From assembly GCF_026210795.1 (NCBI RefSeq), contig NC_089431.1:4402001-4466000 (forward strand): a stretch of DNA of 64,000 nt, written 5' to 3'. The translations under genes and the position numbers were made by a program. The DNA comes from Rhizophagus irregularis. Its lineage: Eukaryota. The notes under the pieces are model-generated. The model was not told the DNA's origin. It did not search any database and saw nothing but the letters and a program-made list of their open reading frames with translations. Positions within the stretch are counted from its first letter, which is position 1. Each line of letters opens with the position of its first letter. Positions 2,192 through 49,258 of the stretch are shown in pieces.

Positions 2192-2724
2192 GTCGTGACG
2201 ATGTCGGTACAGTACTTCAACAGTTTCGTTTCCTAGTGTTAAATTACTAATTCAATGTGAATCTCACTTATTACTATTTCGTATAAATTAATGCAACGTA
2301 TATTTGATATTATATCGAATCATTTATGATATTTCTTTTTTGTGGTTAAAAACCTCATCATATAGGTGGTAATTTTTGGAATATTCCTTATGTTACTCTT
2401 ATTTAATAATGGATCTCACATAATATAATAGATATGAATCAGAGATATGTGTTAACATTTGTATATTATAAGTTGCTAAGTTTAGTATCATTGAATTACT
2501 GATGCGCGAGATGCTGATTTACTATTTGTACAATATAATTATAATATATCCCGAAAAATTGTTTTTTCATATTTTATTGATAAATGAAACAATTGGGTGC
2601 TACGGATACTTTTTTATTATTTAGGGATAATATTATTAATTTTTTTCATTTTTAATGTAATTTTGATTAAATTTATTCGCTAATGTAAATCATTATACTT
2701 TAAAGGATAGTGCATTTTATATCT

Positions 2725-5700
2725 CACCCCAGCCAAATGATCGACATAGTTTCTAAGCTAAGTGGGCGTGCACTACATCCTAGCTTATAAACTGCCCATG
2801 GGCCCAGATTAGCCCACGAGATCTGATTGGTCCAAACAACTTACCAACATTTAATTACAAATAAGGCAATTTTATAACTTTTGACCGGATATTTACTTAT
2901 AAACTCATCGTCAAGGATTGCATTAATGTACATTTTGTACCACCTTGTAACTATAAAAAAGGCAAAAAAATTTTCAAGGTTACACATTAATTTGGCCAGA
3001 ATTAATATAATTTCGCCCAGTAAAATTTGGACGGAATTATAAAACGGACATAAATGTCCGTTTGCGCCAGAATTATAAAAATGGACATTTATGTCCGTTT
3101 TTGTAAATTTGGCCAGCATTATGAATGTAAATATTTTAACTAATCATTCAGTAATCATAAATAAATAAATTATATTTTGTTGGCTTTGTCTCATAAAAAT
3201 ATGCTAAATAGTGGTAATTTCATATTTCTATTATCAATAAATAAAAGTTATTAGCATTTATAAATATTTAAAAATATAAAAAATTATTCAAGAAAATGTT
3301 AATATTTTATTATTTATTTATTAATCCTAAAGGTATAAAACTGCTACCATTTAAAATATATCAAAAAAACAATTCAACAAGCTATATATATTTTATCTTT
3401 CTATTTGTAATTACTTGATTTCAAGCTAAAGCAGTTTAGCTTTTAGCAAATTAATGTAAATATTTAATCAGATAATAGACATTTGTTTTTTTTTAAATCA
3501 AAATACTAGATATTGTTTTATTATTTATTTAATATATAAAAGTTATATGAACATTGTGTTTTATAAATATTATACGAAAATTTTGTAAAGAAAATTTACA
3601 AAAATTTATAATTGATATAATTAATTAATAATTTAATTTATTATTCTAATTGTTATAAAATAATACATCACATACTATTTATGGAAGTTTACTTTAATAT
3701 AATATATATATTACATTAAGAATATATAAATAAATTATTTGATTATCCAATTCATTATATACTATTTTTGTAGATAATGTTATATAAATATACTATTTAT
3801 TTAATGCTATTTGGCATTTAAAAAATTGGTTTATTTAAAAAATATTGACTTTTTGGTTTTTTTATTTTTAAAAATTGCCAAAAAATTGGATTTTTCAATT
3901 ATTAGTATATTAAATATATGTGGAAGTTTTATATATAAATATACCTAGTATTTAATAGTAAATTAAATATATGTGAAAGTTACATAATAAACATATTAGT
4001 ATTTAATTTAATTTGGTATTTAAAATTATTTTATTAATTAAAATATTTTTTTTATTATTAGATGCAAATTATTTTAATAATTGTTAAAAAATTAGATTCT
4101 TTAATTATTATTAGTACATTACATATGCATAAAAGTTACATAAATAATGCAATTTAGCAATTGAAAAATTATTTTATTAATAGGCCATTGAGTTTTATTC
4201 TTTTTTTTAATTAGATATAATTTATTTTAAATATTATTAGAAAATTAAATGATTTGATTCTTTTAATTATTAGTATATTATTATATCTATAGAAGTTAAA
4301 TAAACATACCTATTTAATGGAATTTAATATTTAAATTATTTTATTAATATGAAATTAATTTTTGTTTTGTTTTTATTTACAGTATTTATTATTTATTTAT
4401 TTTTCATTAGATACAAATTATTTTAAATATTGTTAGAAATTGGATTAACAAAATCATTTATTAAAAAAAATTTGGATTTGCGAAATGTACTGATAAACAT
4501 TTACTGCAATAAATTTTTTTAATAAATGATTTTGTTCTAACAATATTTAAAATATTTTGTATCTAATAAAAAAAAAATAAAAAAAATAAATAAATAAATA
4601 CTGTAAATAAAAACAAAACAAAAATTAAGTTTTATATTAATAAAAATAATTTTAAATATTAAATTCTATTATTAAATAGGTATGTTTATCTAACTTCTAT
4701 AAATATATAATGTACTAATAATTAAGAATCAAATCCTTTAATTTTCTATCAAATTTTAAATAATTTAGATCAAATAAAAAAATAAAATAAAATTAAAATA
4801 AAATCAATGTTAATTGCTAAATTACATTAAATAAATTAAATAAGTATGTTTATTTAACTTCTATAAATATATAATATATTAATAATTAAAAGAGCCAAAT
4901 AAATCATTTAATTTTCTATTAATTTTTAAATAATTTGGATCAATAAAAAAAATAAATAAAATCAAAATAAAATGTTAATTGCTAAATTACATTAAATAGA
5001 TTAATAAATAAGTATATTTATTTAACTTCCATAAATATGTAATGTATTAATAATTAAATGAGCCAAATCATTTAATTTTATCAAATAAAAAAAAAATTAA
5101 TAAAATCAAAATTAATCAATGTTAATTGCTAAATTACATTAAATAAGTATGTTATTTAACTTCCATAAATATGTAATGTATTAATAATTGAAGGATTTAA
5201 ATTTCTGACAATTTTTAGATCTAATAAAAAAAGTAAATAAAAAACAAAAAATTAATGTTTTATTTAATAGCATAATTTTTAAATAATAATTAAAAAATTT
5301 AATTTTCTGGCAATTTTGAAATAATTTGTATTTAATAGTAAAAAATAAAAACAAAAAATCATTTTTTAAATGTTAAATAACTTAAATTGCAATTGCATTA
5401 AACAAACATGTTTATAAATATATAATTTATTAAATAATTAATTTACATTAAATAAACTTTATTGCAATTAAAATAATAAATTATAGTAATTATATCAATT
5501 ATAAATTTTTATATATTTTTCTTTACAAAATTTTCATATAATATTTATAAAACATGATATTCATATACTTTTATATATCAAATAAATTATAAAAACAACT
5601 GATTTTTATTGGATATCTAAATACAATAAAAAAATTTTTTTTTGGTTAAAATATACCAAATTGCTAAAAGTTAAATTGCATTAACTTGTCATCAAGTAAT

Positions 5701-6348
5701 TGTAAAAAAATAATACACAGCTTGTTGGATTGTATTGAGATGTATTAAATGGTAGGAGTTTTATACCTTTAGAATTAATAAATAATAAGATATTTACATT
5801 GTTTGAAAAGAATTTTTTTGTATTCTTAAATATTTCCAAATGCCAATAACTTTCCATCTATTGATGATAGAAACCACAATTTAACAATTTAACATGTCTT
5901 GATGAGATAAAGCTAATAAGTTATAATTTATTTTTTCTATGATCACTGGATTATGATAAATTAATGCAATTTATAATATTTGCATTTATAATGCTGACCA
6001 AATTTACAAAAACGGACATTAATGTCCGTTTTTATAATTCCGGCCAAATTTTGCTGGGCGAAATTATCTTAATTCTGGCCAAATTAATGTGTAACCTTGA
6101 AAATTTTTTTGCCTTTTTTATAGTTACAAGGTGGTACAAAATGTACATTAATGCAATCCTTGACGATGAGTTTATAAGTAAATATCCGGTCAAAAGTTAT
6201 AAAATTGCCTTATTTGTAATTAAATGTTGGTAAGTTGTTTGGACCAATCAGATCTCGTGGGCTAATCTGGCCCATGGGCAGTTTATAAGCTAGGATGTAG
6301 TGCACGCCCACTTAGCTTAGAAACTATGTCGATCATTTGGCTGGGGTG
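2725..6348. mobile_element. Foldback-type non-autonomous DNA transposon (3.6-kb palindrome)
   Basis: Ends CACCCCAGCCAAATGATCGAC.. / ..GTCGATCATTTGGCTGGGGTG; outer ~400 bp near-identical inverted repeats; degenerate AT-rich arms continue to a centre near 4490; 8-bp TSD TTATATCT/TGATATCT; no transposase ORF. Confidence 0.9.
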
Positions 6349-7189
6349 TGATATCTGAATATTGATTATATGAAATTTATAATCAAGACAAATATTATTG
6401 ACAAAATTAAGGTATTAAAACTATTTAAAAAGACTAGCAAAATAACAAAAAATGAAAAAAAAAATGAAAAAAAAATCATATTTTACGTTTAATATTATTC
6501 ATGTTTCTAAATCTGTTTTTTTTTGATTCAATCGAAATAATGATAAAAAATAAAAACAAAAATGTTAATAATTAACAACAATGAACAACAATTTTATTTT
6601 TATTTATTTTTAATCATCGAGATTTCATGTAACGAATAAACTTCAATATCTATATCAAGTTGATAATATGAGTACGAAAATTTATTATTAAAATTTCAAA
6701 TCCTTAATCCTTAATACATAATAATAATAATTAGCTGTACGATATTGAAAAAAAAATTAAATAATCATTATCGCCTATTTCTATATATCACTTTATTGTT
6801 AAATAAGGAAAAATACTCCTTTTATTTCGCCGTAAAAAGTATCGGACTTGTCGACCCCCTTGTAAAATATTCAAATCAGACCCGCACAGGTCAAGAACAA
6901 AACATTTCAAATCAAATATATTCGTAGTTACAATATATATATAGAGAAAATAAGATTGTATCAACAAAGCGCAATAAGATCGTCATGGTTCAAGAAACAC
7001 ATGGAGACATGCACTTAAATATGTACATGCGCAGTAAATTATGAACTTGAAAAAAGTATAAAATAACTAGTTTGCAATGTTTAATTTTTTCCAGCAAAAA
7101 AAAACCATTTGAAAAAAAATTCAAAAATATTATCAAATAAAATTATCGAACAATTCAAAAATTTTAACAAACTAACTTTCCTAAAAAAA

Positions 7190-11229: not shown

Positions 11230-11435
11230 TAGTTATTAATCAAATATGATAATGGGCGTTTATGCTTAATAATGATTCGATGTGACAATTTTGTGACACA
11301 TTAGTTATCGTACCATTATTAAGCACACCAGTATAATAAATACCATACAAATTATTTCGTCAAAAATATTATTCACTTTAAAAAAAAAATATTTCTTTCT
11401 CATTTTTATCATTTTTTTTTTTTTTGATTATTATA

Positions 11436-13000
11436 ATGGCCAGTAAATTTTTATCAAAATTATCACAAAATTTACTCGAAATTTTAGATGACGACGAATA
11501 TTATGATGTTACAATTGAAGTTGGTAACGATCCTTACGTAAAAGTATTTCGTGCTCATATGGTTATATTAAATTATCGTTCTCCTTATTTGAGAAGAATT
11601 TTATCAACTAATAAAAAGAAAAATGATGGAACTTTAACTCATATAAAATTACCAAATATTTTACCCGAAATTTTTCAAATAATTTTAAGGTATTAAAAAC
11701 TCATTTTTTTTAATAAACAAGTTATTTAAGATTATTTTTTTTTATTTTCTTTTTATAATTAATTTTTATTTTTTTTTTTAGGTATATTTATGGTGGAAAA
11801 CTTGTTTTGAAAGAATATGATATTTTAGATATTATTAAAATTTTGGTTGCTGCTAATGAATTAAATCTTCAAGACCTTATTCCTTATTTACAATTATTTT
11901 TAATTAGAAATAAAACATCATATTTAGAACAAAATTTTAATTTAATATATCAAACTAGTTTCGAAAATGATTCTTTTTTGGATCTTCAAAAATTTTGTAC
12001 AAAATTAATTTCTAAACAACCAGAAAAAATTTTTAATTCACCTGATTTCACTTCAATTTCAGAAAAAATATTAATCTCTCTTATTCAACTTGATGATCGT
12101 AAAATTAATGAAGTTCAAATCTGGGAAAATGTACTTAAATGGGGTATTGCTCAGAATCCTGGATTATCTTCAGATCCTTCAAATTATTCAAATGATGATT
12201 TTATTACTTTAAAAAATACTTTACAACAATTTATTCCTTTTATTAAATTTACTGATTTTACTTCTAAAGAATTCGTAAGTAAGGTGTTTCCATATAGAAA
12301 GATTATTCCTGAAGATTTACAAGATAATTTAATTAAATACTTTTTGGATCATGATCATAGTAAATCAAATAAAAAATCAGAACAACAACAGACAATCAAA
12401 ACGATCAAAAAAATCGATTCTAATAATAATAATAACAATAAGAAGAAAAGTATTGATTCAAAAATTATTACCAATCAACATGTTGAATTAATCTCAAAAT
12501 GGATTGATAAATTAGAAATTACTGATGAATTAAAAAATTTATATGAATTCAAATTAATTCTTCGTGGATCTCGTGATGGTTTTACACCTGAAAAATTTCA
12601 TGAATTTTGTGATAATCAATCTAATACTATATCAATTATTAAATTAAAAGATAGTAATGAAATTCTTGGAGGTTATAATCCAATTATGTGGCAATTTAAA
12701 ATATATAATATATATAGTGAAACTAAAGATAGTTTTATATTTTCTTTTAATAATAATAATATGAAAGATATTAAAAATCATATATTAAGTCGTGTTAAAA
12801 ATAAAAAGTACGCTATAGATAATAATTTTATACATGGTCCATCATTTGGTCAAGAGGATCTTCAAATTTATGGTGGTTCTAAACGTTCTTTTAATGATCG
12901 TACTAGTCATTGTAAAAAAATTTCTTATGAAAAGCAGATCAGAAAAACTGAAGATCATTTTTCTATAGAAGAATATGAAATTTTTCAGATTTACAAATAA
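11436..13000 (+). CDS. BTB/POZ-BACK-TLDc domain protein
   Basis: Exons 11436-11689 and 11782-13000; BTB motif YDVTIEVG..FRAHMVILNYRSPY; TLDc motifs LILRGSRDGF, ILGGYNP, GPSFG, IEEYEIFQ. Confidence 0.92.
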
Positions 13001-17177: not shown

Positions 17178-17606
17178 TTTTGCGCAGCATAGAAAAAAAA
17201 TCCTTTTACTTTACTTTGCGCAGCATAAAAAATAAAAAAGTCCTTTTACTTTACTTTTGCGTAGCATAGAAAATAAAAAATCCTTTTACTTTACTTTGCG
17301 CAGCATAAAAAATAAAAAAGTCCTTTTACTTTACTTTTGCGTAGCATAGAAAATAAAAAAATCCTTTTACTTTACTTTGCGCAGCATAGAAAATAAAAAA
17401 ATCTTTTTACTTTACTTTGCGCAGCATAGAAAATAAAAAAATCTTTTTACTTTACTTTTGCACAGGCATAAAAAATAAAAAAATCTTTTTACTCTACTTT
17501 TGCGCAGCATAGAAAATAAAAAAATCTTTTTTCTTTACTTTTGCGCAGCATAGAAATAAAAAAATCTTTTTTCTTTACTTTTGCGTAGCACAGAAAATAA
17601 AAAATC
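17178..17606. repeat. ~40-bp minisatellite (TTTTGCGCAGCATAGAAAATAAAAAAATCTTTTACTTTAC), ~10 copies
   Basis: Directly visible; followed by three degenerate ACAAATGTACCTTCGCCATCACATAGCGCT copies at 17690-17840. Confidence 0.9.
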
Positions 17607-24479: not shown

Positions 24480-25490
24480 GTGATTCAAAAGGATGTCCAT
24501 TATCATTAAAGGACTGAAAACTAGTATAATATAAAGTTGTAACTAAAACCAAGAGATTCCAAGTTATTCATCCAAACAAATCCTCGTCGTAATGTGTGGG
24601 AAAACGGTGTATACATTTGTTTACTTGTGTACATGTTGTTGCGAATAATCAAGATGATACCAAGTGCTTTAAAAGGCGAAGCCGTTCCAAAAAAATCCGA
24701 GTGGAGGAAAATTAAAGAAATGATGGCATATTTACTACCATTCCACACCAGATACTAAAAGTAAAGCGATAACCGGCACGATAACTGAATTATAAATGTT
24801 AGTTTAAATATATTGATAAGCATAAATGTTTATTTATTTGAAGTATTTAAATTAAACTTATAAATAATTGTCTTACCTTGCTGAAAAATTCATTAGTATC
24901 TAAACATTTTAATACAAAACTTTTATAAGAGTCCCTTTTCCATTCCTCATTAATGTATAATAATGGACCATTCTTCCATATTGCCGAGCATAAAATAACA
25001 GTACACGAAAAAAATATAAAAAACTTTTCTAAATATCTTGGCGAATGTTTACTGCTGATGATATTGATCTCTGGGTACATTATAATTATTATTTCCCTTA
25101 ATAAATAATATTTATCATTCAAGATCGAGTACACTTGAATGAATTTACTAAATTACCGCACCTCAGCGACTGGCCATGACCAATTAATTAGTTGTACAAC
25201 GTCGAGTCAATTTCAAGATATAATGGGACCGTTATTCCTGAAGAATGAGTCAATATGTTTAATTAATAATATCAAGAAAGAGATGTTTTGAAATTATGTA
25301 AATTAAATATTGACCTTCCGATATCTATCCCCAATAATAATAAATAAACATTTAAAAAACTTGCAAAAGCTCTTAAAACCCATTCCGCTTTTGAAATATT
25401 GCAAGTATATATTATATCAAATGAGTTTCCAATGAAGATGATGCCACCAAATTTCTTGCCGACTTTCGTTCGCGTTGTCTTAAAGTGATA
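24480..25490 (-). pseudogene. Degenerate multi-exon gene relic including a kinase N-lobe-like fragment
   Basis: SAIWKNGPLLY..FVLKCL..EFFSKV resembles the kinase N-lobe exons elsewhere in the window; surrounding frames are broken by stops. Confidence 0.35.
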
Positions 25491-26137
25491 ATTACTAATC
25501 TACAAGAAATTAAAAATCGTCTTTTGGAAACATATTCATTGAATGAATTCTTTAAACATGAATTTCAAAAAAAAATATCTGGCGTCACATCAATAAATGA
25601 ATTATACAGTGAGTCATACATGTAAATTTAATAAAATTAAATCTCGTCATACAAAAAATTTTTTTTATTATGGATAAAATTATGTGAGAACATATTATAA
25701 ACTGCATTTTTTAATAATTAACTATTTCTTTTGATCTCAATACGCAGCACTTGTTTTTTTATAAATATGACTCATTATTAAACATACGTATATTGTTTTT
25801 TATTAGGTCTAAAAAAAAAGTCAAAATGACGTGATCTTTCCATAAAAAAAAAATGACTAATATTGCTGATGCTACTGATGCTAAGCTATCAGATAATACT
25901 AGTCTGACTTTTAACAGATTATCTAGATTATCTAAAAACGCGTGATATTTTCGATAACTACAATAACTATTGATTAATCATTGACGCGTTTTGTAAATAA
26001 TTATGTAATTATAACGCCAACGCCAACTTTCATAAGCTTATGGGAAAAAATGATGTAATATTGTAACCAAACTCCCTAAAGAAGTATAACAAGATTATTA
26101 GTCACTATATATCTGAAAGGGTTTTTTAAAAGTATAT

Positions 26138-26332
26138 ATATACCCTCACTCTTTTTTTTTAAAAAAAAATACACCCTTCTCTCACTTCTTTTTTTTTAAA
26201 AAAAATACACCCTTCTTTCTTTCTTTAAAAAATATGCCCTTTCTTTTTTTTATAAAATACACCTTCTCTTTCTTTAAAATTACACACTTCTTTCCTTCTT
26301 TAAAATACACATTATATTATGTATTTTATTAT
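26138..26332 (+). repeat. Degenerate TACACCCTTCT-Tn-An repeats (~6)
   Basis: Directly visible just upstream of the intron array. Confidence 0.6.
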
Positions 26333-26397
26333 TTTACTCTTTAAAAAATTATTAACTTTGGAAGTTTAGCATTACTGAAGTTGAAAATAAAAAAATA

Positions 26398-28125
26398 ATC
26401 TTTATTTATTAAGGTAAGCTTGCGCTCCCTGCTTGCATAGTTTTAATGATACTGGTTTACGGATAAAAAAAGCTGAGGAGTAAGATATAAGAGAAACTGG
26501 CTTTCCCTTAAGAGGGTTAGCCTATGTACCTGGCTCTTATGGTTGGTGTCATGATATCAGTGGTTTGCCATAGGATTATACAGTGTATTGTTCTAGGGTG
26601 AACCACTGGTAGCATGATATTGACACTTTTCTGGAAGCTTTTTTTTATGGAGTATGGTGCAAATCATACTAACGTTTTTTTTTATCTTGTTTAGATTATT
26701 TTAGGTCTTTATGTGGAATAAATCAATGACTTTTAATATAAGATAACATACATCTTTATTTATTAAGGTAAGCTTGCGCTCCCTGCTTGCATAGTTTTAA
26801 TGATACTGGTTTACGGATAAAAAAAGCTGAGGAGTAAGATATAAGAGAAACTGGCTTTCCCTTAAGAGGGTTAGCCTATGTACCTGGCTCTTATGGTTGG
26901 TATCATGATATCAGTGGTTTGCCATAGGATTATACAGTGTATTGTTCTAGGGTGAACCACTGGTAGCATGATATTGACACTTTTCTGGAAGCTTTTTTTT
27001 ATGGAGTATGGTGCAAATCATACTAACGTTTTTTTTTATCTTGTTTAGATTATTTTAGGTCTTTATGTGGAATAAATCAATGACTTTTAATATAAGATAA
27101 CATACATCTTTATTTATTAAGGTAAGCTTGCGCTCCCTGCTTGCATAGTTTTAATGATACTGGTTTACGGATAAAAAAAGCTGAGGAGTAAGATATAAGA
27201 GAAACTGGCTTTCCCTTAAGAGGGTTAGCCTATGTACCTGGCTCTTATGGTTGGTGTCATGATATCAGTGGTTTGCCATAGGATTATACAGTGTATTGTT
27301 CTAGGGTGAACCACTGGTAGCATGATATTGACACTTTTCTGGAAGCTTTTTTTTATGGAGTATGGTGCAAATCATACTAACGTTTTTTTTATCTTGTTTA
27401 GATTATTTTAGGTCTTTATATGGAATAAATCAATGACTTCTAATATAAGATAACATACTTCTTTATTTATTAAGGTAAGCTTGCGCTCCCTGCTTGCATA
27501 GTTTTAATGATACTGGTTTACGGATAAAAAAAGCTGAGGAGTAAGATATAAGAGAAACTGGCTTTCCCTTAAGAGGGTTAGCCTATGTACCTGGCTCTTA
27601 TGGTTGGTGTCATGATATCAGTGATTTGCCATAGGATTATACAGTGTATTGTTCTAGGGTGAACCACTGGTAGAATGATATTGACACTTTTCTGGAAGCT
27701 TTTTTTTATGGAGTATGGTGCAAATCATACTAACGTTTTTTTTATCTTGTTTAGATTATTTTAGGTCTTTATATGGAATAAATCAATGACTTCTAATATA
27801 AGATAACATACTTCTTTATTTATTAAGGTAAGCTTGCGCTCCCTGCTTGCATAGTTTTAATGATACTGGTTTACGGATAAAAAAAGCTGAGGAGTAAGAT
27901 ATAAGAGAAACTGGCTTCCCCTTAAGAGGGTTAGCCTATGTACCTGGCTCTTATGGTTGGTGTCATGATATCAGTGGTTTGCCATAGGATTATACAGTGT
28001 ATTGTACTAGTTCTAGGGTGAACTATTGGTAGCATGATATTGACACTTTTCTGGAAGCTTTTTTTTATGGAGTATGGTGCAAATCATACTAACGTTTTTT
28101 TTATCTTGTTTAGATTATTTTAGGT
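26398..28125 (+). repeat. Tandem array of 353/354-bp units (~4.9 copies), each an intron plus a non-coding exon
   Basis: AAG|GTAAGC starts at 26411, 26765, 27119, 27472, 27825; each unit has TACTAAC, a T-tract and TAG. Confidence 0.95.
26542..26624 (+). ncRNA. Candidate intronic pre-miRNA-like hairpin (first of 5 copies)
   Basis: 40-position stem with 3 mismatches, 9 G:U pairs and no A:C mismatch, so it folds well on the + (intron-sense) strand only. Confidence 0.55.
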
Positions 28126-29483
28126 TTATTACAGTACGAATATATAATATACACAGTAAACGCAATAGAAAAATAATAAGGAATATAATGAATATAATTG
28201 GATTACGGGTCATTGCAAAATTGGTAAAGTATTATTCTAATTATGAGCCCCAAATATTGTGCTGTAGTCAAACAAAAATCTCAACAAATTGTCTATGATC
28301 AAATAAAATTCATTACTATTTTGTCAAAACTTTATTTTTCTATGCACTCCTTGGTTTTTACTAATAATTTTTTGATAATGTTTGTTTCGTTAATTTGCAA
28401 TTTCTTGTATTACTTTTTTAGAATAAGTGGCTGCACGAACTGCATGGTAAATCATGATATAGTTGATCAATAACTTTTTTCGTTTGTTCTTAAAAAATTT
28501 TAAGAATTTTATATTTGCTGTCATAACAACTATTATACTCAAATTAAGCACTCTCGTTAATTTCAAACACATAGCATCTGATCGCATTTAATATACTGTA
28601 CAATTTATTTCTACAGTACATTCAATCTCAGTCAAATGGTCTTAGAGGAGAGTCCATGCTTAAAAAAATAAGTATGAAAATTCGATATCATTAGAACCAT
28701 GTTGAGAGATAATAATGATAGTTTAAAAATAGTATATCGTAATTAAAAATATATTTGTTCACCATACATAAAGTATAATAAATTTGAATATTTTTTTTTT
28801 TTTGCACAGCGTAATATTTTTATAGCATAAACCCATTAATTATAAATTTATAAAAATTATTTTTTACTTGAAATAATTTAATAATTTGTTTGTATAAAAT
28901 ACGTTTGGCGTAATTGACAATTAATAATTACGTTATATATCACATATTTATAAATTAACTATTCCTTTTTCAGACTTCAAAAAAAAAAAATCAAATCATT
29001 AAAATTTTCTTCCAAACTTTTAATATATATATTCTTTTAATAGAAATTTTTTCTTGAAATATAAAATATATCTCCAAGAATTATTATGAAAGAATTTAAT
29101 ATTATTTTATTGTTTAATTATTATCGGTATTTTAAGATCGGTTAATATTGTTGTAGGTTTGTGAAACTTTAACGTAACACAATGCAAGTCCCATTTTGAT
29201 AAGTTCTAAGAATTCTGTACGGAATGTACAATAAAAATCGAAATGTCATTTGGAAACATACTTTAACCATATTAGGCATTAAAAAAATCAATTTTATAAA
29301 CAATGTAGGATCCATTTTGTATCAAAACATTAGAAACTTCTATCGGGTATTATACGCAGATTTTTTTTTAATTTTGTAAAAGAATTCATTGTTCAATTTT
29401 TTATTATAAAAACGTATATATATAGAAGCTGTTTCTTTTAAATATATTCAAAAATAAACAAATAAATTAATAGATAAAAAATT

Positions 29484-35956: not shown

Positions 35957-37542
35957 TCAAAAACTATTAATCTGAAATACTTCATAGTCTTCTATAAAAA
36001 ACTTATCTTCAGATTTTCTGATAGGTTTTTCATAGGATGACTGTTTACAATAACACTTATTAAATTTTTTACCATCAGATACATAGCAAGTTTTTCCCAA
36101 TAATATAAGATCACCATAACCAAATGATGGACCCAATTTCTTCTTATAATTTATGGCATGCTTTTTATCCATCACTCTACTTAGAAGATAACCTTCAACA
36201 TTTTCATTGTTCATAAAGGAAAATATAAAACTATCATTAGTAACGCCCAAGCCCTCAGACTTCCATTCAATCGGATTATATCCTCCAAGAATTTCATGAC
36301 TGTCTTTTACTTTTAAAATTGCTATAGTATGAGATTTGTTATCGCAAAAATCATGAAATCTAGGAGCATTAAATCCATCACGAGATCCACGATAAATCAA
36401 TTTAAATTCGTACGAATTTTCTGCCTTATCTGTAATTTCTAATCTATCAATCCATTTTGAGATTAATTCAGAATGTTGAGTTTTAATAATTATCGAATCT
36501 ATACTTATTGAATCAACTTTTGGAGTAAATTCGACCTGCTTGTTTGAATTGGCTGTTGAATTACTAACGCTCTCTGAACTGATTGTTTTGATCATTTGAA
36601 GTTCGTCTGGCCTATAATCATGATTCAAAAAAATTTTCAATAATTCCTTATATAATTCCTTGGGTAAAATTTTCTTATAAGGTAAAACTTTACCCAGAAA
36701 TTCTTTAGAGGACAAAGTAAAGAATTTAATAAAAGGAATACATTGTTGTATGGTATTCTTTAAAACATTGAAATCATCTTTTGAAAAGTTTGCAGGATCA
36801 GAAGGGAGTTCAGGATTTTGAGCAAGTCCCCATTTAAGAACGTGTTCCCAGGCTTGAATTCCATTCATTTGAAGATTATCGTGTCGAAGAAGAGAAATCA
36901 AAGTTTTCTCTGAAATTGAAGTAAAATCGGGTAAATTAAAAATTTTTCCGGTTGTTTAGATATTAATTCCGTACAAAACTTTTGAAGTTCTAAGAAAGAA
37001 TCACTCTCAAAACTAGTTTGATATATTGAAATAAAATTTTGTTCAATCCAGTTTGCTTGGTTATCAATCAAAAATGATTGCGAATGGGGTATTAGCTCCT
37101 GAAGACTTAGTTCACTGGCAGCAACCATAATTTTAACAACGTGCGAGGCATCATATTCTTCCAAAGAAAGTTTTCCTCCATAAATATACCTAAAAAAAAA
37201 GAAAAATTATTTTTTTTAATGAAATAATCACAAAATATGTAAACTATATATTAAATTAAGTAATTATAATTTAATCCGTTCTTACTTCAAAATTATTTGG
37301 AAAATTTCAGGTGAAATATTTGTTAATTTAATATGTGTTAACGTTTCGTCATTCTTCTTTTTATTTGTTGACAAAATTCTTCTCAAATAAAGAGAACGAT
37401 AGTTCAAAATAACCATATGAGCGCGAAAAATTTTAACATAAGGGTCATTACCAACTTCTATTGTAACATCATAATATTCTTCATCATTCAAAATTTCGAG
37501 TAAATTTTGTGATAATTTTGGTAAAAATTTATTATCCGACAT
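35957..37542 (-). pseudogene. BTB-BACK-TLDc gene with a single 1-bp frameshift (pseudogene or homopolymer sequencing error)
   Basis: Two-exon structure like the paralog at 39598-41167; T5 at 36943-36947 where the paralog has T6 splits exon 2 into ORFs 36898-37164 and 35957-36901. Confidence 0.8.
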
Positions 37543-37698
37543 AATGAATGAAACAGAAAATAAAGTTTTTTTTTGCAGATCGTATCCGAATGTTTGAATT
37601 TATAAGAATACAAATATATTACTGTATGACTGTATCACATACGATCGACATAGTTTTTTTGACTATCAAATCTCATTACCTTACTATATTTACTTTAC

Positions 37699-37890
37699 TG
37701 GAACCCCGAGTTAATATACAGTATTATAGGTCAGGGAAGATCGGCACACATTTACTATTAGCTCTACGAATTTCTTCAGGGCCGGAATTATGTAATGCCG
37801 GTCGGCATTATCCACAAATGGAAACGATCTACATGATTTTTTTTTTTTTTAGCTCATTCTAAGTAAATAACTAGGACCTGACCTTTCTAT
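37699..37890. mobile_element. Relic of the MITE family at 35049-35258
   Basis: Shares TTCAGGGCCGGAATTA..ATTATCCA..GATCTACATGATTTTTT..CTCATT; absent from the paralogous promoter at ~41270. Confidence 0.55.
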
Positions 37891-39597
37891 TAATTCAGTC
37901 AAGAGACGTAGTCGATCTATGACTGACCCGTTTCCGCAGTTCTGGTGATTACCATCTAACTTAATGGCGTATTGAATAGCTCAGTTTACCGAATATATAA
38001 TTTAGGAGATAGGAATTGTCAAGAGATTAGCAAATATTCTGGCAAAAATATCGCAAGTCTCGCTCACAAATTAAAAATATACAGTAAATTGAATTAAGAT
38101 AAATGATAAAACTATTAACAAACTAAAACGAACTCTTCAACAAGCTTATCAATTTATAAATTCAAAATTATTAATTTCACAAAGTAACCTTTTTTTTTTT
38201 TAAATAAAAAAATTATTAGCATACAGTTTACGACGTAATATCCGGAACTTAGAATTTTATTATTTTTATTTCGAATTAATGCTATTACTAGTAGTTTAAT
38301 ATACATAGATGAATATATGTTAAAAATTATAAACAATTTATTATATAGCATTTTTTTCTGACACTAATCTAATCCAATACGCAATTTTCTAATTAAAGAA
38401 ATAATTTTAATTAATTTATCCCACTCCTATGAATAAAGCCTCCATCCAAGTATTTTTTTTTTAATAATTCAAATAAATAGACCGGTTAATTGTTATTTAA
38501 TTATTTCTGTATGTTATCCCTTCTACAGTTAACTTATACATTTTGAATATGAAAGAAGAAACTGTGAATTTGTATTGCTACTAATAAATAATTAGGTAAG
38601 CATGATATTGTCGCTCGCTTATTCTATATCTAAAAATGGTTAAAATATTCGTTGTTTAATTTGAGTTTTCGGTTCACGTACGTTGAAAAAAATTTTCAGT
38701 TTTAAAAAAATCCACCTGGCAAATTTTATAACAAACAATCATATTATAAAATTTTTTTCGAAGTTTTACAAAAACTGACCCGGCCGGGTGATGTGAACCG
38801 AAAAATCAAATTTGTGTGGCTTTAGATCATCCGGGCTTCAAAAGATCGAGATTAACCTTCTAAGAAATTTTGATTCAAAAATTATTTCGAATCAAAATGT
38901 TGAATTAATTTTAAAATGGATAATTATAAAAGTTCAAAATCATTAAAATCAAAATCTTCAAACTAAATTCTTTAAAATTAAGCTTTTTGCATGAATTCAG
39001 ATTAATGTTTCGTGATCTCGTGATGGATTTAATCCTGATGCAACAATTTTACTAAGTGAAGAACAGTTGACAAGATTCTTGGAGGTATAATCCAATCATG
39101 TGAAAATATGAAGAATTTAAAAAATGCTAGATATAATCTAATGATAGTGAAAATTGTATTTTAAATCTTATAACGGGTGGGAATATAATAATTCTGAATA
39201 GGTTCTGTCATTTTTGATTTACCAGCTTGGAAGCAATTGTTTTAATTATTGTTACTTTTAGGGGATAAATCGACTAGAGAACTGATGATGGAAGGACATG
39301 AAGTAAATTATAAGGTATCGATATTAATCATTGAAATTTACGTTATTTTTATTTTTATTATTTTATTTATTTACTTATTTATTTATTTTAGAAAAAAATA
39401 AAGATAAAAGGATAAAAGTAGAACGAAAATTTCGGCTTATATGTCAATAATGGTATATTGTGATAATTAATTTAAGCTTCGCAATTTATTAAGCTAAACT
39501 TCTTAGTAATAGGAATTAGACTAATAGATTTATAAGAATGTAAGAAGAAAAGAATTATACCAATAAGTCAAAACAAGTTTAAACAAAAAACATATAT

Positions 39598-41167
39598 TTA
39601 AATATTAATCTGAAATATTTCATATTCTTCTATTAAAAACTCATCTTCAGAATTTCTGATAAATCTTTCATAGGATGACTTTTTACAATAACACTTATTA
39701 AATGTTTTACCATCAAATATATAGCAAGTTACTCCTAATAATGTAAGATCACTTTCACCAAATGATGGACCAAATAACCCCGAATAATTTATGGCATGCT
39801 CTTTATCTTTCACTCTACTTAGAAGATAATCTTCAATATTTTCATTGTTCTTAAAGGAAAATATAAAACTATCGTTAGTAACGCCAAAGCCCTCAGACTT
39901 CCATTCAATCGGATTATATCCTCCAAGAATTTCATCTCTGTCTTTCACTTTTAAAATTGCTATAGTATGAGATTTGTTATCGCAATAATCATGAAATCTA
40001 TAAGCATTAAATCCATCACGAGATCCACGATAAATCAATTTAAATTCGTACAAATTTTCTGCCTTATCTGTAATTTCTAATCTATCAATCCATTTTGAGA
40101 TTAATTCAGCATGTTGAATTTTAATAATTATCGAATCTATACTTATTGAACCAACTTTTGGAGTAAATTCGGCCTGCTTGTTTGAATTGACTATTGAATT
40201 AACGCTCTCTGAACTGATTGTTTTGATCGGTTTAAGTTCGACTGGCCTATAATCATGATTCAAAAAAATTTTCAATAATTCCTTATATAATTCCTTTGGT
40301 AAAACTTTCTTATAAGGTAAAACCTTGTCCATAAATTCTTTAGAGGACAAAGTAAAGAACTTAATAAAAGAAATACATTGTTGTAAGGTATTCTTTAAAA
40401 CATTGAAATCATCTTTTGAAAAGTTTGCAGGATCAGAAGGAAGATCGGGATTTTGAGCAAGTCCCCATTTAAGAACATGTTCCCAGACTTGAATTCCATT
40501 CATTTGAAGATCATCATGTTGAATAAGAGAAATCAAAGTTTTCTCTGAAATTGAAGTAAAATCGGGTGAATTAAAAATTTTTTCTGATTGTTTAGAAATT
40601 AATTCCGTACAAAACTTTTGAAGTTCTAAGAAAGAATCACTCTCAAAGCTAGTTTGATATATTTGAATAAAATTTTGTTCAATCCAGTCTGCTTGGTTAT
40701 TAATCAAAAATGATTGTGTATGGGGTATTAGTTCCTGAAGACTTAGTTCACTGGCAGCAACCAAAATTTTAACAATGTAGGAAGCATCAAATTCTTCCAA
40801 GGAAAGTTTTCCTCCATAAATATACCTAAAAAAAAAAAAGAAAAATTGTTTTTTTTAAACTATATATTAAAATAAATATTTATAATTTAATCTGTTCTTA
40901 CTTTAAAATTATTTGGAAAATTTCGGGTGAAATATTTGATAATTTAATATGTGTTAACGTTCCAATCGTTCCATCATTCTTCTTTTTATTTGTTGATAAA
41001 ATTTTTCTCAAATAAGAGGAACGATAGTTTAAAATGACCATATGAGCACGAAAAATTTTAACATAAGGGTCATTGCCAACTTCTATTGTAACATCATAAA
41101 ATTCTTCATCACCTAAAATTTCGAGTAAATTTTGTGATAATTTTGGTAAAAATTTATTATCTGACAT
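39598..41167 (-). CDS. BTB/POZ-BACK-TLDc domain protein
   Basis: Exons 41167-40902 and 40826-39598; intact BTB and TLDc motifs. Confidence 0.92.
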
Positions 41168-42329
41168 AATGAATGAAACGGAAAATAAAGTTTTTTTTGC
41201 AGATCGTATCCAAATGTTTGAATTTATAACCAGCCAAATGATCGACATAGTTTTTGTGCAGAATTAAATTATGATGTATTCAGTCAAGAGACGTAGTCGA
41301 TCTATGTCTGATCTGGTCGGATGATTGACATCTAACTTAATGGCGTATTTAATCAATTTTTTAGCCCGCTAAGTCCAAAACGTCGACCCATAGAACGGTC
41401 GCATCCTCTCTCTCGATTTGTACATTACCTCACTTAAATGGAGGATAATTGTCGCCTACCGCCATACTCTCTTGAAAATAAGACGGAATTTCCTAATACT
41501 CAAACGGAACTTCTTAACCGACTTAAACTGTCCAGAAAGACAAAATTGAAGTCGTTTTACTTTGTGACTTCAACGACCAATTTGACACCATGGGATCTTC
41601 ACATGCCATTAATCATCAATTCCTTCACAATCAGGATTTCATTGATTGTTTCGCCAGTGACCCTCTTACCGACAAACCTTTATCCACACATTTTTATTCT
41701 CATTATAATGTCGCAAATCTTCCAGAATCAACTATATTTGGCTTTCTCCGGCCTATAATCTATTAATATTAATAATAATAATTTTCTTATTTAAAATTTT
41801 AAAACATGATTTTTCATCAGTATAAAGAGTTATAACGAGAAATGTGATAAATATTTTTTCTATTAGTTCTAATAAAAAACTGTTTATGTATCCGAATCTA
41901 CTTTCATATTGAAAAACTTTATTTCCACATCCATTTATTTCTAGAATAAATGATGAGTATATGACATTTATTATTAATACAGGCTTTATTACATAAATGA
42001 GAAGTAATATATTATATTCGTACAATACATGTTCAATATAGCAGTCAATACGAGTCTTCTTTCTCAAAACAAATTACCTTTAATTAAAACTTAACGTGTG
42101 ATTTTCCAGAAAAATAAAAAAAAATTGGCGTAGCCTTTATATTCTTGCAATAAATTGCAGTTTATTTCAATATGAAAATTTCAATATGAAAACATCTGAC
42201 GTAATTTTAAAACGGTGAATTGAATTTGAAATAATTTATTATAGGATAAATTATCTTTTTTTGAATAATTTTATAAAATGACATATTTTTACTATAGAAA
42301 ACTTTAACGTATACAAAATTTTTTAGATA

Positions 42330-48678: not shown

Positions 48679-49258
48679 CCGTATAGCGCTGCATACAGTA
48701 CCCCCTTGTAATAGTACCCCCTTGTAATAGTACCCCTTCAAATAGTACCGGGGTATTATTCAAATTCCTAATAAAAAAAGAATGTCCGGAAATTGTAGCT
48801 AAAAACGTCCGGAAAATGTTTATTTGTCTGGAATATGTCCGGAATATTGCAATATTCCGGACGTTGGAAAATTTCCATTTTCCAGAAAATGTCCAGAAAA
48901 TGTCTAGGAGGGTTTAGACCCAGCGTCCAGAAAGTGCCCGGAATATTGCAATTTTCTGGACGTTTTCCGGACACACGGACATTTTCCGGATGTTTTTAGC
49001 TACAATTTCCGGACATTTTTTTTTTTACAGGGATTCACATTCGGGTATTTTTGAAAAATACCCCGGTACTAATCAAAATTCGATTTTGAATAGTACCCGG
49101 ATACTAATCATATTCCGACTTGAAAAACTAATCTAATTGTAATAAAATCAAATGTACCCCCTTCCAATATACCCCCTTTTAATAGTACCCCCCGGGTACT
49201 ATTCAATCTAAGCGGACTTTCTTGAATAGTACCGGGTACTATATGCAGCGCTATACGG
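48679..49258. mobile_element. Tc1/mariner-type MITE carrying a nested insertion
   Basis: TIRs CCGTATAGCGCTGCATA / TATGCAGCGCTATACGG; TA flanks; AATAGTACCC subterminal repeats. Confidence 0.9.
48767..49032. mobile_element. Nested palindromic MITE with CC(C)..GGG ends
   Basis: ~50-bp inverted arms AATGTCCGGAAATTGTAGCTAAAAAC..; ATT on both flanks; TCCGGA repeats. Confidence 0.75.

Follow-up and report, generated by a model that had tools for sequence, protein, structure and literature searches.

A five-copy tandem array of hairpin-bearing introns in Rhizophagus irregularis: a candidate small-RNA locus within a dispersed intron family

Overview

The explanation that we favor, tentatively, for the repeated stretch at 26398-28125 is an intron of an apparently non-coding Rhizophagus irregularis transcript which carries a 37-pair hairpin, is present in five head-to-tail copies and belongs to a dispersed family, the hairpin likely being cut by Dicer into small RNAs. 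All positions refer to the window, i.e. the whole 64-kb stretch of DNA that was analyzed, and the features of the locus lie on its plus strand. A spliced, multi-member hairpin family that varies in copy number would offer a handle both on how AM fungi make small RNAs from hairpins and on isolate-specific variation. The host organism had been guessed to be an AM fungus in a first-pass annotation of the sequence, and the neighboring SET/TPR protein, 99% identical to an R. irregularis protein, bears this out.

The tandem array

Tandem Repeats Finder describes 26398-28125 as a tandem array with a period of 354, 4.9 copies and 98% matches. It divides into five units of 353-359 bases (period 353-354, the last unit 359) that are at least 97% alike. 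The splice signals that the first-pass annotation attributed to the repeat unit are present in all five: a donor AAG/GTAAGC (at 26414, 26768, 27122, 27475 and 27828; the slash marks the exon end), a TACTAAC branch point (at 26667, 27021, 27375, 27728 and 28087) and acceptor candidates TAG (26694 and 26704 in unit 1, with matching places in the other units). Five of the eight plus-strand TACTAAC words in the 64-kb window, and five of its seven AGGTAAG words on that strand, are inside the array.

These signals delimit intron 1 (26414-26694, 281 nt, GT..AG) and the intron copies 2 (26768-27048), 3 (27122-27401), 4 (27475-27754) and 5 (27828-28113), separated by a 73-nt exon 2 (26695-26767) that is repeated at 27049-27121, 27402-27474 and 27755-27827. 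The introns are 280-286 nt long with a GC content of 0.375-0.382, against 0.19-0.21 in the exons, so the earlier statement that the introns are the more GC-rich (about 38% versus about 20%) was correct. The introns are 0-5 substitutions apart, plus one base in the T-run and six extra bases in copy 5. The differences between copies that had been listed earlier are borne out as well: copy 2 has a single change, G:U to A:U; copy 5 has two changes of G:C to G:U; and the two changes of copy 4 break hairpin pairs (-36.9 versus -45.0 kcal/mol). To these must be added the six extra bases of copy 5, near the hairpin loop, which the first-pass annotation did not mention and which recur in other samples; copy 5 also has an ungapped match in a contig of run X8. 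The intron is poor in CpG (3 observed versus 9.6 expected), a value as low being found in 4 of 93 comparable sequence windows.

Within the 64-kb window there is no further copy of the unit outside the array. BTB-BACK-TLDc genes occupy 35960-41263 and 11382-13000, forming a 3.6-kb direct duplication and an inverted paralogue, and there are four protein-kinase paralogues at other places in the window. Inverted arms of up to 244 nt, 98% complementary, lie at 2719-3607 and 5504-6354 around an AT-rich core containing a 164-168-nt tandem repeat (4670-5086), the whole looking like a foldback or TIR element. Another tandem array, with 10.6 copies of a 40-nt unit and 90% matches, is found at 17178-17604, and a 98-nt inverted repeat (48763-49035) flanked by 15-16-nt tandem repeats resembles a small element (48697-49192). 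Upstream of the locus, at 25430-25625 (plus strand), about 65 codons of protein-like sequence run without a stop amid broken frames and are possibly what is left of a gene or transposon.

Splicing and the transcript

Of 24 public runs listed, none of them a small-RNA run, eight were compared with the locus. In the comparison with 26306-26767, a contig of the public run X6 (319 nt, depth 8.4), free of mismatches, skips exactly 281 bases, 26414-26694, with GT..AG ends. The junction 26413^26695, one of two that the first-pass annotation had singled out for checking, is thus found in one contig, and its acceptor is the first AG (26694). There is no such joint in X1, X7 or X15, so that one of four runs is positive. 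Since the first AG is used in the spliced contig, the internal exons would be 73 bases long and not 63; they have stops in all three frames on either reading, and the earlier description of a ~63-nt exon stopped in every frame was right about the stops and wrong about the length. The library type of X6 is not on record, and strictly the contig could also stem from a DNA allele that lacks the intron; the X6 data suit RNA, however, because a unit-to-unit junction (26751 to 26398, depth 3) occurs there together with very uneven depth. Intron 1 is real and has been spliced at least once, while the splicing of introns 2-5 is predicted. One spliced contig, from a run whose library is unrecorded, implies plus-strand transcription of the precursor. 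Beyond 26747 the same contig carries 30 letters unlike the window, which may be another 3' exon, a difference between isolates or a chimera.

Unspliced contigs or reads span a donor or acceptor in X6, X7, X8, X22 and X23, and a 243-nt contig resembling copy 5 (depth 2), from an RNA library of the rhizosphere, is unspliced as well. In two deep poly(A) runs with the same species label, none of 81 and none of 79 reads on 27755-28900 reached 99% likeness, and no splice joint was present. The main hairpin of the intron (hairpin B, below) is uncovered in X6, as is the locus in X22 and X23; neither shows absence.

The putative first exon (26133-26413) is placed from a TATA-like word at 26133 and a CT/A-rich tract, the reads tested covering 26306-26413 alone, and the putative last exon (28114-28330) from an AATAAA at 28302. 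In the modelled spliced RNA the longest ORF does not exceed 36 codons. Together with the stops in every exon frame, this agrees with the non-coding host gene proposed earlier.

Hairpin B and the predicted folded domain of the intron

Hairpin B (26542-26624) is a candidate Dicer substrate of 37 pairs, nine of them G:U, with three 1x1 mismatches and no A:C, exactly as the first-pass annotation had counted (83 nt, 40 positions, 3 mismatches). Its folding energy is -43.6 kcal/mol on the plus strand (z -8.2), a value that none of 200 shuffles equals, and -21.9 kcal/mol on the minus strand (z -4.0), which one of 200 does; the 9 G:U versus 0 A:C give a binomial p of 0.004. To call this folding specific to the spliced strand, as had been done, goes too far: it is strand-biased. 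The best 91-nt fold of 4262 in the window lies in this hairpin (-41.1 versus -37.9 for the best elsewhere). A stable single-strand hairpin precursor, as looked for in milRNA loci, is therefore present here (37 pairs, z -8.2).

Hairpin B is predicted to sit within a larger folded domain (26465-26646, z -8.4), in which an A-run (26465-26474) would pair with a U-run (26636-26646) as a clamp. The domain also holds hairpin A (26486-26541, z -2.5), which has an asymmetric internal loop and belongs to a sequence block common to the paralogues, though with a variable loop. A small hairpin further downstream (26651-26673, z -2.8) overlaps the branch point (26667-26673) and starts with a latent GTATGG donor at 26652.

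Variants were scored for pairing against the partner base in the window, partners being unlinked in the variant tables. On this basis, 7 of the 14 single-base variants in hairpin B keep their pair (4 change G:U to Watson-Crick and 3 G:C to G:U), 6 break it and one, at a mismatch, would close it (by eye). Of the basal G:U pairs, four have a Watson-Crick counterpart in another copy, sample or paralogue, and both intron changes of copy 4 are among the six that break pairs. Upstream of hairpin B, 10-12 of 25 variants break a predicted pair; since these variants are unlinked to their partners, covariation there is neither proven nor excluded. Because the upstream variants so often break predicted pairs, the support for hairpin A and the clamp is weaker than that for hairpin B.

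A dispersed family of related introns

Shared sequence blocks place the array intron in a family of related introns, dispersed and apparently undescribed. Almost all reads in the two poly(A) runs (80 of 81 and 76 of 79) match the locus over no more than part of their length, in most cases at 85-99% likeness. Besides the window's own, there are at least five upstream flanks, each joining 7-11 bases before the donor, which is where exon likeness fades in the paralogues while the intron blocks are shared. At least five different continuations follow hairpin A or the hairpin B base, at least two the donor block and at least one the acceptor. In a contig of X7 the two end blocks enclose 116 different bases where the window has 204, and one of X6 (1214 nt, depth 143) continues for more than 1.1 kb past hairpin A. 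The first family block (26403-26462) comprises the exon end, the donor and the following ~45 nt; it is common to paralogues with other upstream flanks, most paralogous reads having an A at 26461 that makes a CAG. Because flanks and continuations differ around common blocks, the donor block, hairpin A, the base of hairpin B and the branch-point region are shared and the interior is exchangeable. Among the findings that would refute its own reading, the first-pass annotation had named the unit being an internal repeat of a dispersed transposon; this is so in part, since the unit does belong to a dispersed family, possibly a transposon.

Searches in other collections gave nothing above chance. 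A 17-base pattern run against a metagenome collection returned 119 loci whose best likeness to the unit was 26 bases, all of them chance, and scans of prokaryote genomes and viruses gave 0 matches for long patterns and 6 and 4 chance matches for 17-base ones. Rfam at its curated cut-offs has no match over the window, and at E values up to 10 three generic miRNA-hairpin matches in 26000-26800 (16.7-22.2 bits versus cut-offs of 70-100). A tRNA scan found none, and a bacterial promoter scan, a method unsuited to a fungus, stayed at chance level. Likenesses to a hammerhead, to K-turn or box C/D and box H/ACA elements, to U1, U2 or U6atac and to a telomerase template were dropped, as the motifs (compared by eye with the paralogue variants) are incomplete or not kept. 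We found no description of this intron family in the open-access literature, and the accessible parts of PMC8647823, PMC10234402, PMC7082362, PMC11982788, PMC13106029 and PMC6431247 make no mention of one.

Copy number and variation between samples

The unit is present in several copies in independent runs, and the array is not an assembly artefact of the kind that the first-pass annotation had thought conceivable. In X1 the exact unit contig has a depth of 111 versus 19.7 for the exact flank contig, and both exon variants of the window are seen (depths 63 and 59). For X15 the depths are 172 (unit) and 55 (flank), with a single exon variant, and in X7 the repeated exon runs directly into the 3' flank. 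Such summed depths are not copy numbers and serve here only to indicate several copies; the copy number of the array nonetheless appears to differ between samples.

The fivefold array looks like a recent local head-to-tail duplication (breakpoints 26398 and 26751) that need not be adaptive, and copy 4 is decaying. Dosage amplification, proposed earlier, is unsupported. The amplification looks recent and variable between samples, and both intron changes of copy 4 break pairs. The 3' arm and acceptor (128 nt, corresponding to 28000-28127) also occur, with 7 differences and 1 gap, in run X10, which bears the label of another organism, and the downstream flank next to them is that of the window. 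An X10 contig carries about 115-125 extra bases at 28158, including a piece like the repeated exon, and the ancestral last exon probably held both forms.

Small RNAs

Motifs of both hairpin arms and of the shared blocks are absent from the supplement files searched of PMC6399891, PMC11982788, PMC13106029 and PMC8647823, and in the RisRNA lists of PMC13106029 two matches to one 8-base word are unrelated to the locus. A control word was found in the PMC11982788 supplement and the PMC13106029 list has more than 1390 small RNAs, but the supplements are partial or selective and the PMC6399891 and PMC8647823 files may not list sRNA sequences at all. Since published lists are selective and the isolates may lack the locus, this negative is weak. 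According to the accessible portion of PMC6399891, R. irregularis has hairpin-derived small RNAs and expanded AGO and RdRp families, with only ten miRNA-like loci reported, which form a family distinct from the one here; intronic milRNAs are rare in fungi, as far as the part of PMC9757828 available to us goes. The cross-kingdom RNAi suggested for the array by the first-pass annotation is unsupported. The cross-kingdom study PMC13106029 (seen in part) did include in its tests the known product of another R. irregularis hairpin, locus 340, listed as RisRNA23.

Interpretation

Under our preferred explanation, a Pol II transcript would start near 26140, and the A-run/U-run clamp would loop out 26465-26646, bringing donor and acceptor to a distance of about 100 bases; since the clamp shortens this path, the long structured insert could still be spliced. 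The long hairpin, in the retained or the excised intron, would then be cut by Dicer, as the known pathway of the species suggests. The exons would be disposable carriers; the donor block, hairpin A, the base of hairpin B and the branch-point hairpin would be the scaffold; and the distal hairpin would be a cargo differing between paralogues, perhaps like the mature arms around the shared loop of the scaffold_28 cluster described below. The array itself would have arisen by the head-to-tail duplication already described.

Much of this could instead reflect a selfish mobile repeat, a possibility that we take seriously though we doubt it: an introner-like element or a non-autonomous rolling-circle (Helitron-like) one, the ends of which double as splice sites by chance, with hairpins that serve splicing or copying and small RNA as a by-product of silencing. 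Non-autonomous Helitrons have a 5' TC after a target A and, at the other end, a 3' hairpin and then CTRR/T. The array does start at an A/TC word, 16 bases before the donor; such a word stands 11-14 bases before the donor in four of five other flanks (by eye); and one flank resembles the distal part of hairpin B joined to the A/TC word, i.e. a second head-to-tail junction (again by eye). However, A/TC at the left boundary is also explicable by common descent, and there is no CTRR at the 3' junction of the unit (none after 26672 in unit 1, although the true 3' end of the family may lie elsewhere). Nor is there the terminal inverted repeat of a MITE, the best local match between the two 50-nt ends being 6 of 7 bases. 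Dispersal, with five or more other flanks, interiors that vary while the ends are common, and a CpG depletion as expected of methylated repeats would all suit a selfish element, as would the length and stable fold that the accessible part of PMC3609843 describes for introner-like elements (ILEs). On the other hand, the 7-11 shared exonic bases and a fainter likeness upstream (by eye) suit diverged paralogous exons better than fresh insertions, the paralogous reads, instead of being near-identical, mostly show 85-99% likeness and have had their interiors replaced, and the locus seems common to a second organism label. If it is a selfish element, it would represent an introner-like family in Glomeromycotina, of which our literature search found no description; pairing introner with Rhizophagus gave one unrelated match only.

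Alternatively, the structure could act in cis only, compacting the intron or regulating its splicing or retention in a weakly expressed lncRNA, with a neutral and productless array. The donor and branch point do lie in predicted hairpins, the clamp would cut the intron to about 100 bases, unspliced molecules cross the donor or acceptor in the five runs named above, the depth on the locus is low (2-8) and no small RNA was found. Still, the donor hairpin is no better than its shuffles (z 0.07), a 37-pair stem is far beyond what compaction needs and a family with a shared hairpin A is left unexplained, so that we think this clearly unlikely. Least probable by far is a reading that divides the 281-nt intron into 49 + 189 + 43 nt, with two short introns flanking what was once a coding exon of a protein family, now dead and skipped because the first acceptor was lost by a change of CAG to CGG. 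It draws on the CAG at 26460-26462 of most paralogous reads (CGG in the window), on the GTATGG donor at 26652-26657, before the branch point, and on a middle of 63 codons with several indels of 3, 6 or 9 bases. Yet the 39 variants fall on codon positions 15/12/12, with no third-position bias, and 27 of them are non-synonymous; paralogues have 1-base indels and in-frame stops; protein searches gave no homologue, five HMMER matches being summed weak matches to repeat proteins; and none of the reads or contigs listed uses the CAG. With neither a homologue nor codon-type variation, we reject a pseudogenised coding exon as largely refuted.

A bolder reading is conceivable, if unlikely: a second, undescribed family of miRNA-like genes in R. 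irregularis built as intron cassettes, each a shared splice-and-fold scaffold with an exchangeable long hairpin. The cassettes would spread and amplify themselves, always copied head to tail and always starting at one left boundary, and isolates would consequently differ in the dose and kind of their small RNAs. If true, an early-diverging fungus would possess a small-RNA module that is mobile and borne by introns.

Comparison with known systems

The primate C19MC miRNA cluster belongs to the animal Drosha pathway and consists of dozens of diverged copies with proven miRNAs. It resembles the array in its repeated cassette of intron and non-coding exon, with a hairpin per intron, but only by analogy. 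Among fungi, the non-coding snoRNA hosts of Neurospora crassa, which are UHG/gas5-like, likewise have short non-coding exons and one structured RNA per intron, the payload starting 41-60 nt from the donor compared with 51 in the array (PMC2780460, accessible part). The layout of non-coding exons and structured introns is thus that of a snoRNA host; however, the array has no Rfam snoRNA match and, by eye, neither conserved C/D boxes nor an H or ACA box in the right position, and its five payloads are near-identical copies instead of different guides.

Closer in kind is the milRNA cluster of loci 338-345 on scaffold_28 of the same species (PMC6399891, with hairpins in supplement 5 of PMC9757828, as far as these sources were available), which consists of clustered, co-oriented hairpins of about 90-110 nt and similarly combines a shared scaffold with variable arms. 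Its shared loop motif has no match here at up to 3 mismatches, and the two are different families; the longest shared word is 8 bases and none of its mature sequences matches the array (both by eye). The scaffold_28 loci are supported by reads and, in those same sources, not described as intronic, whereas the array hairpins are intronic and without read support.

Finally, fungal introner-like elements and same-gene intron duplications, as presented in the accessible part of PMC3609843, are multi-copy and longer than usual, with canonical splice signals and a stable predicted structure, and the array intron has these splice signals, this length and this stability. Introners are further expected to occur as near-identical copies in unrelated genes; the present family has at least five other flanks, but its copies have diverged and its flanks share 7-11 exonic bases. 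Unlike the ILEs of that study, moreover, part of the exon is copied here along with the intron, the hosts appear to be non-coding and there are members whose interiors have been replaced.
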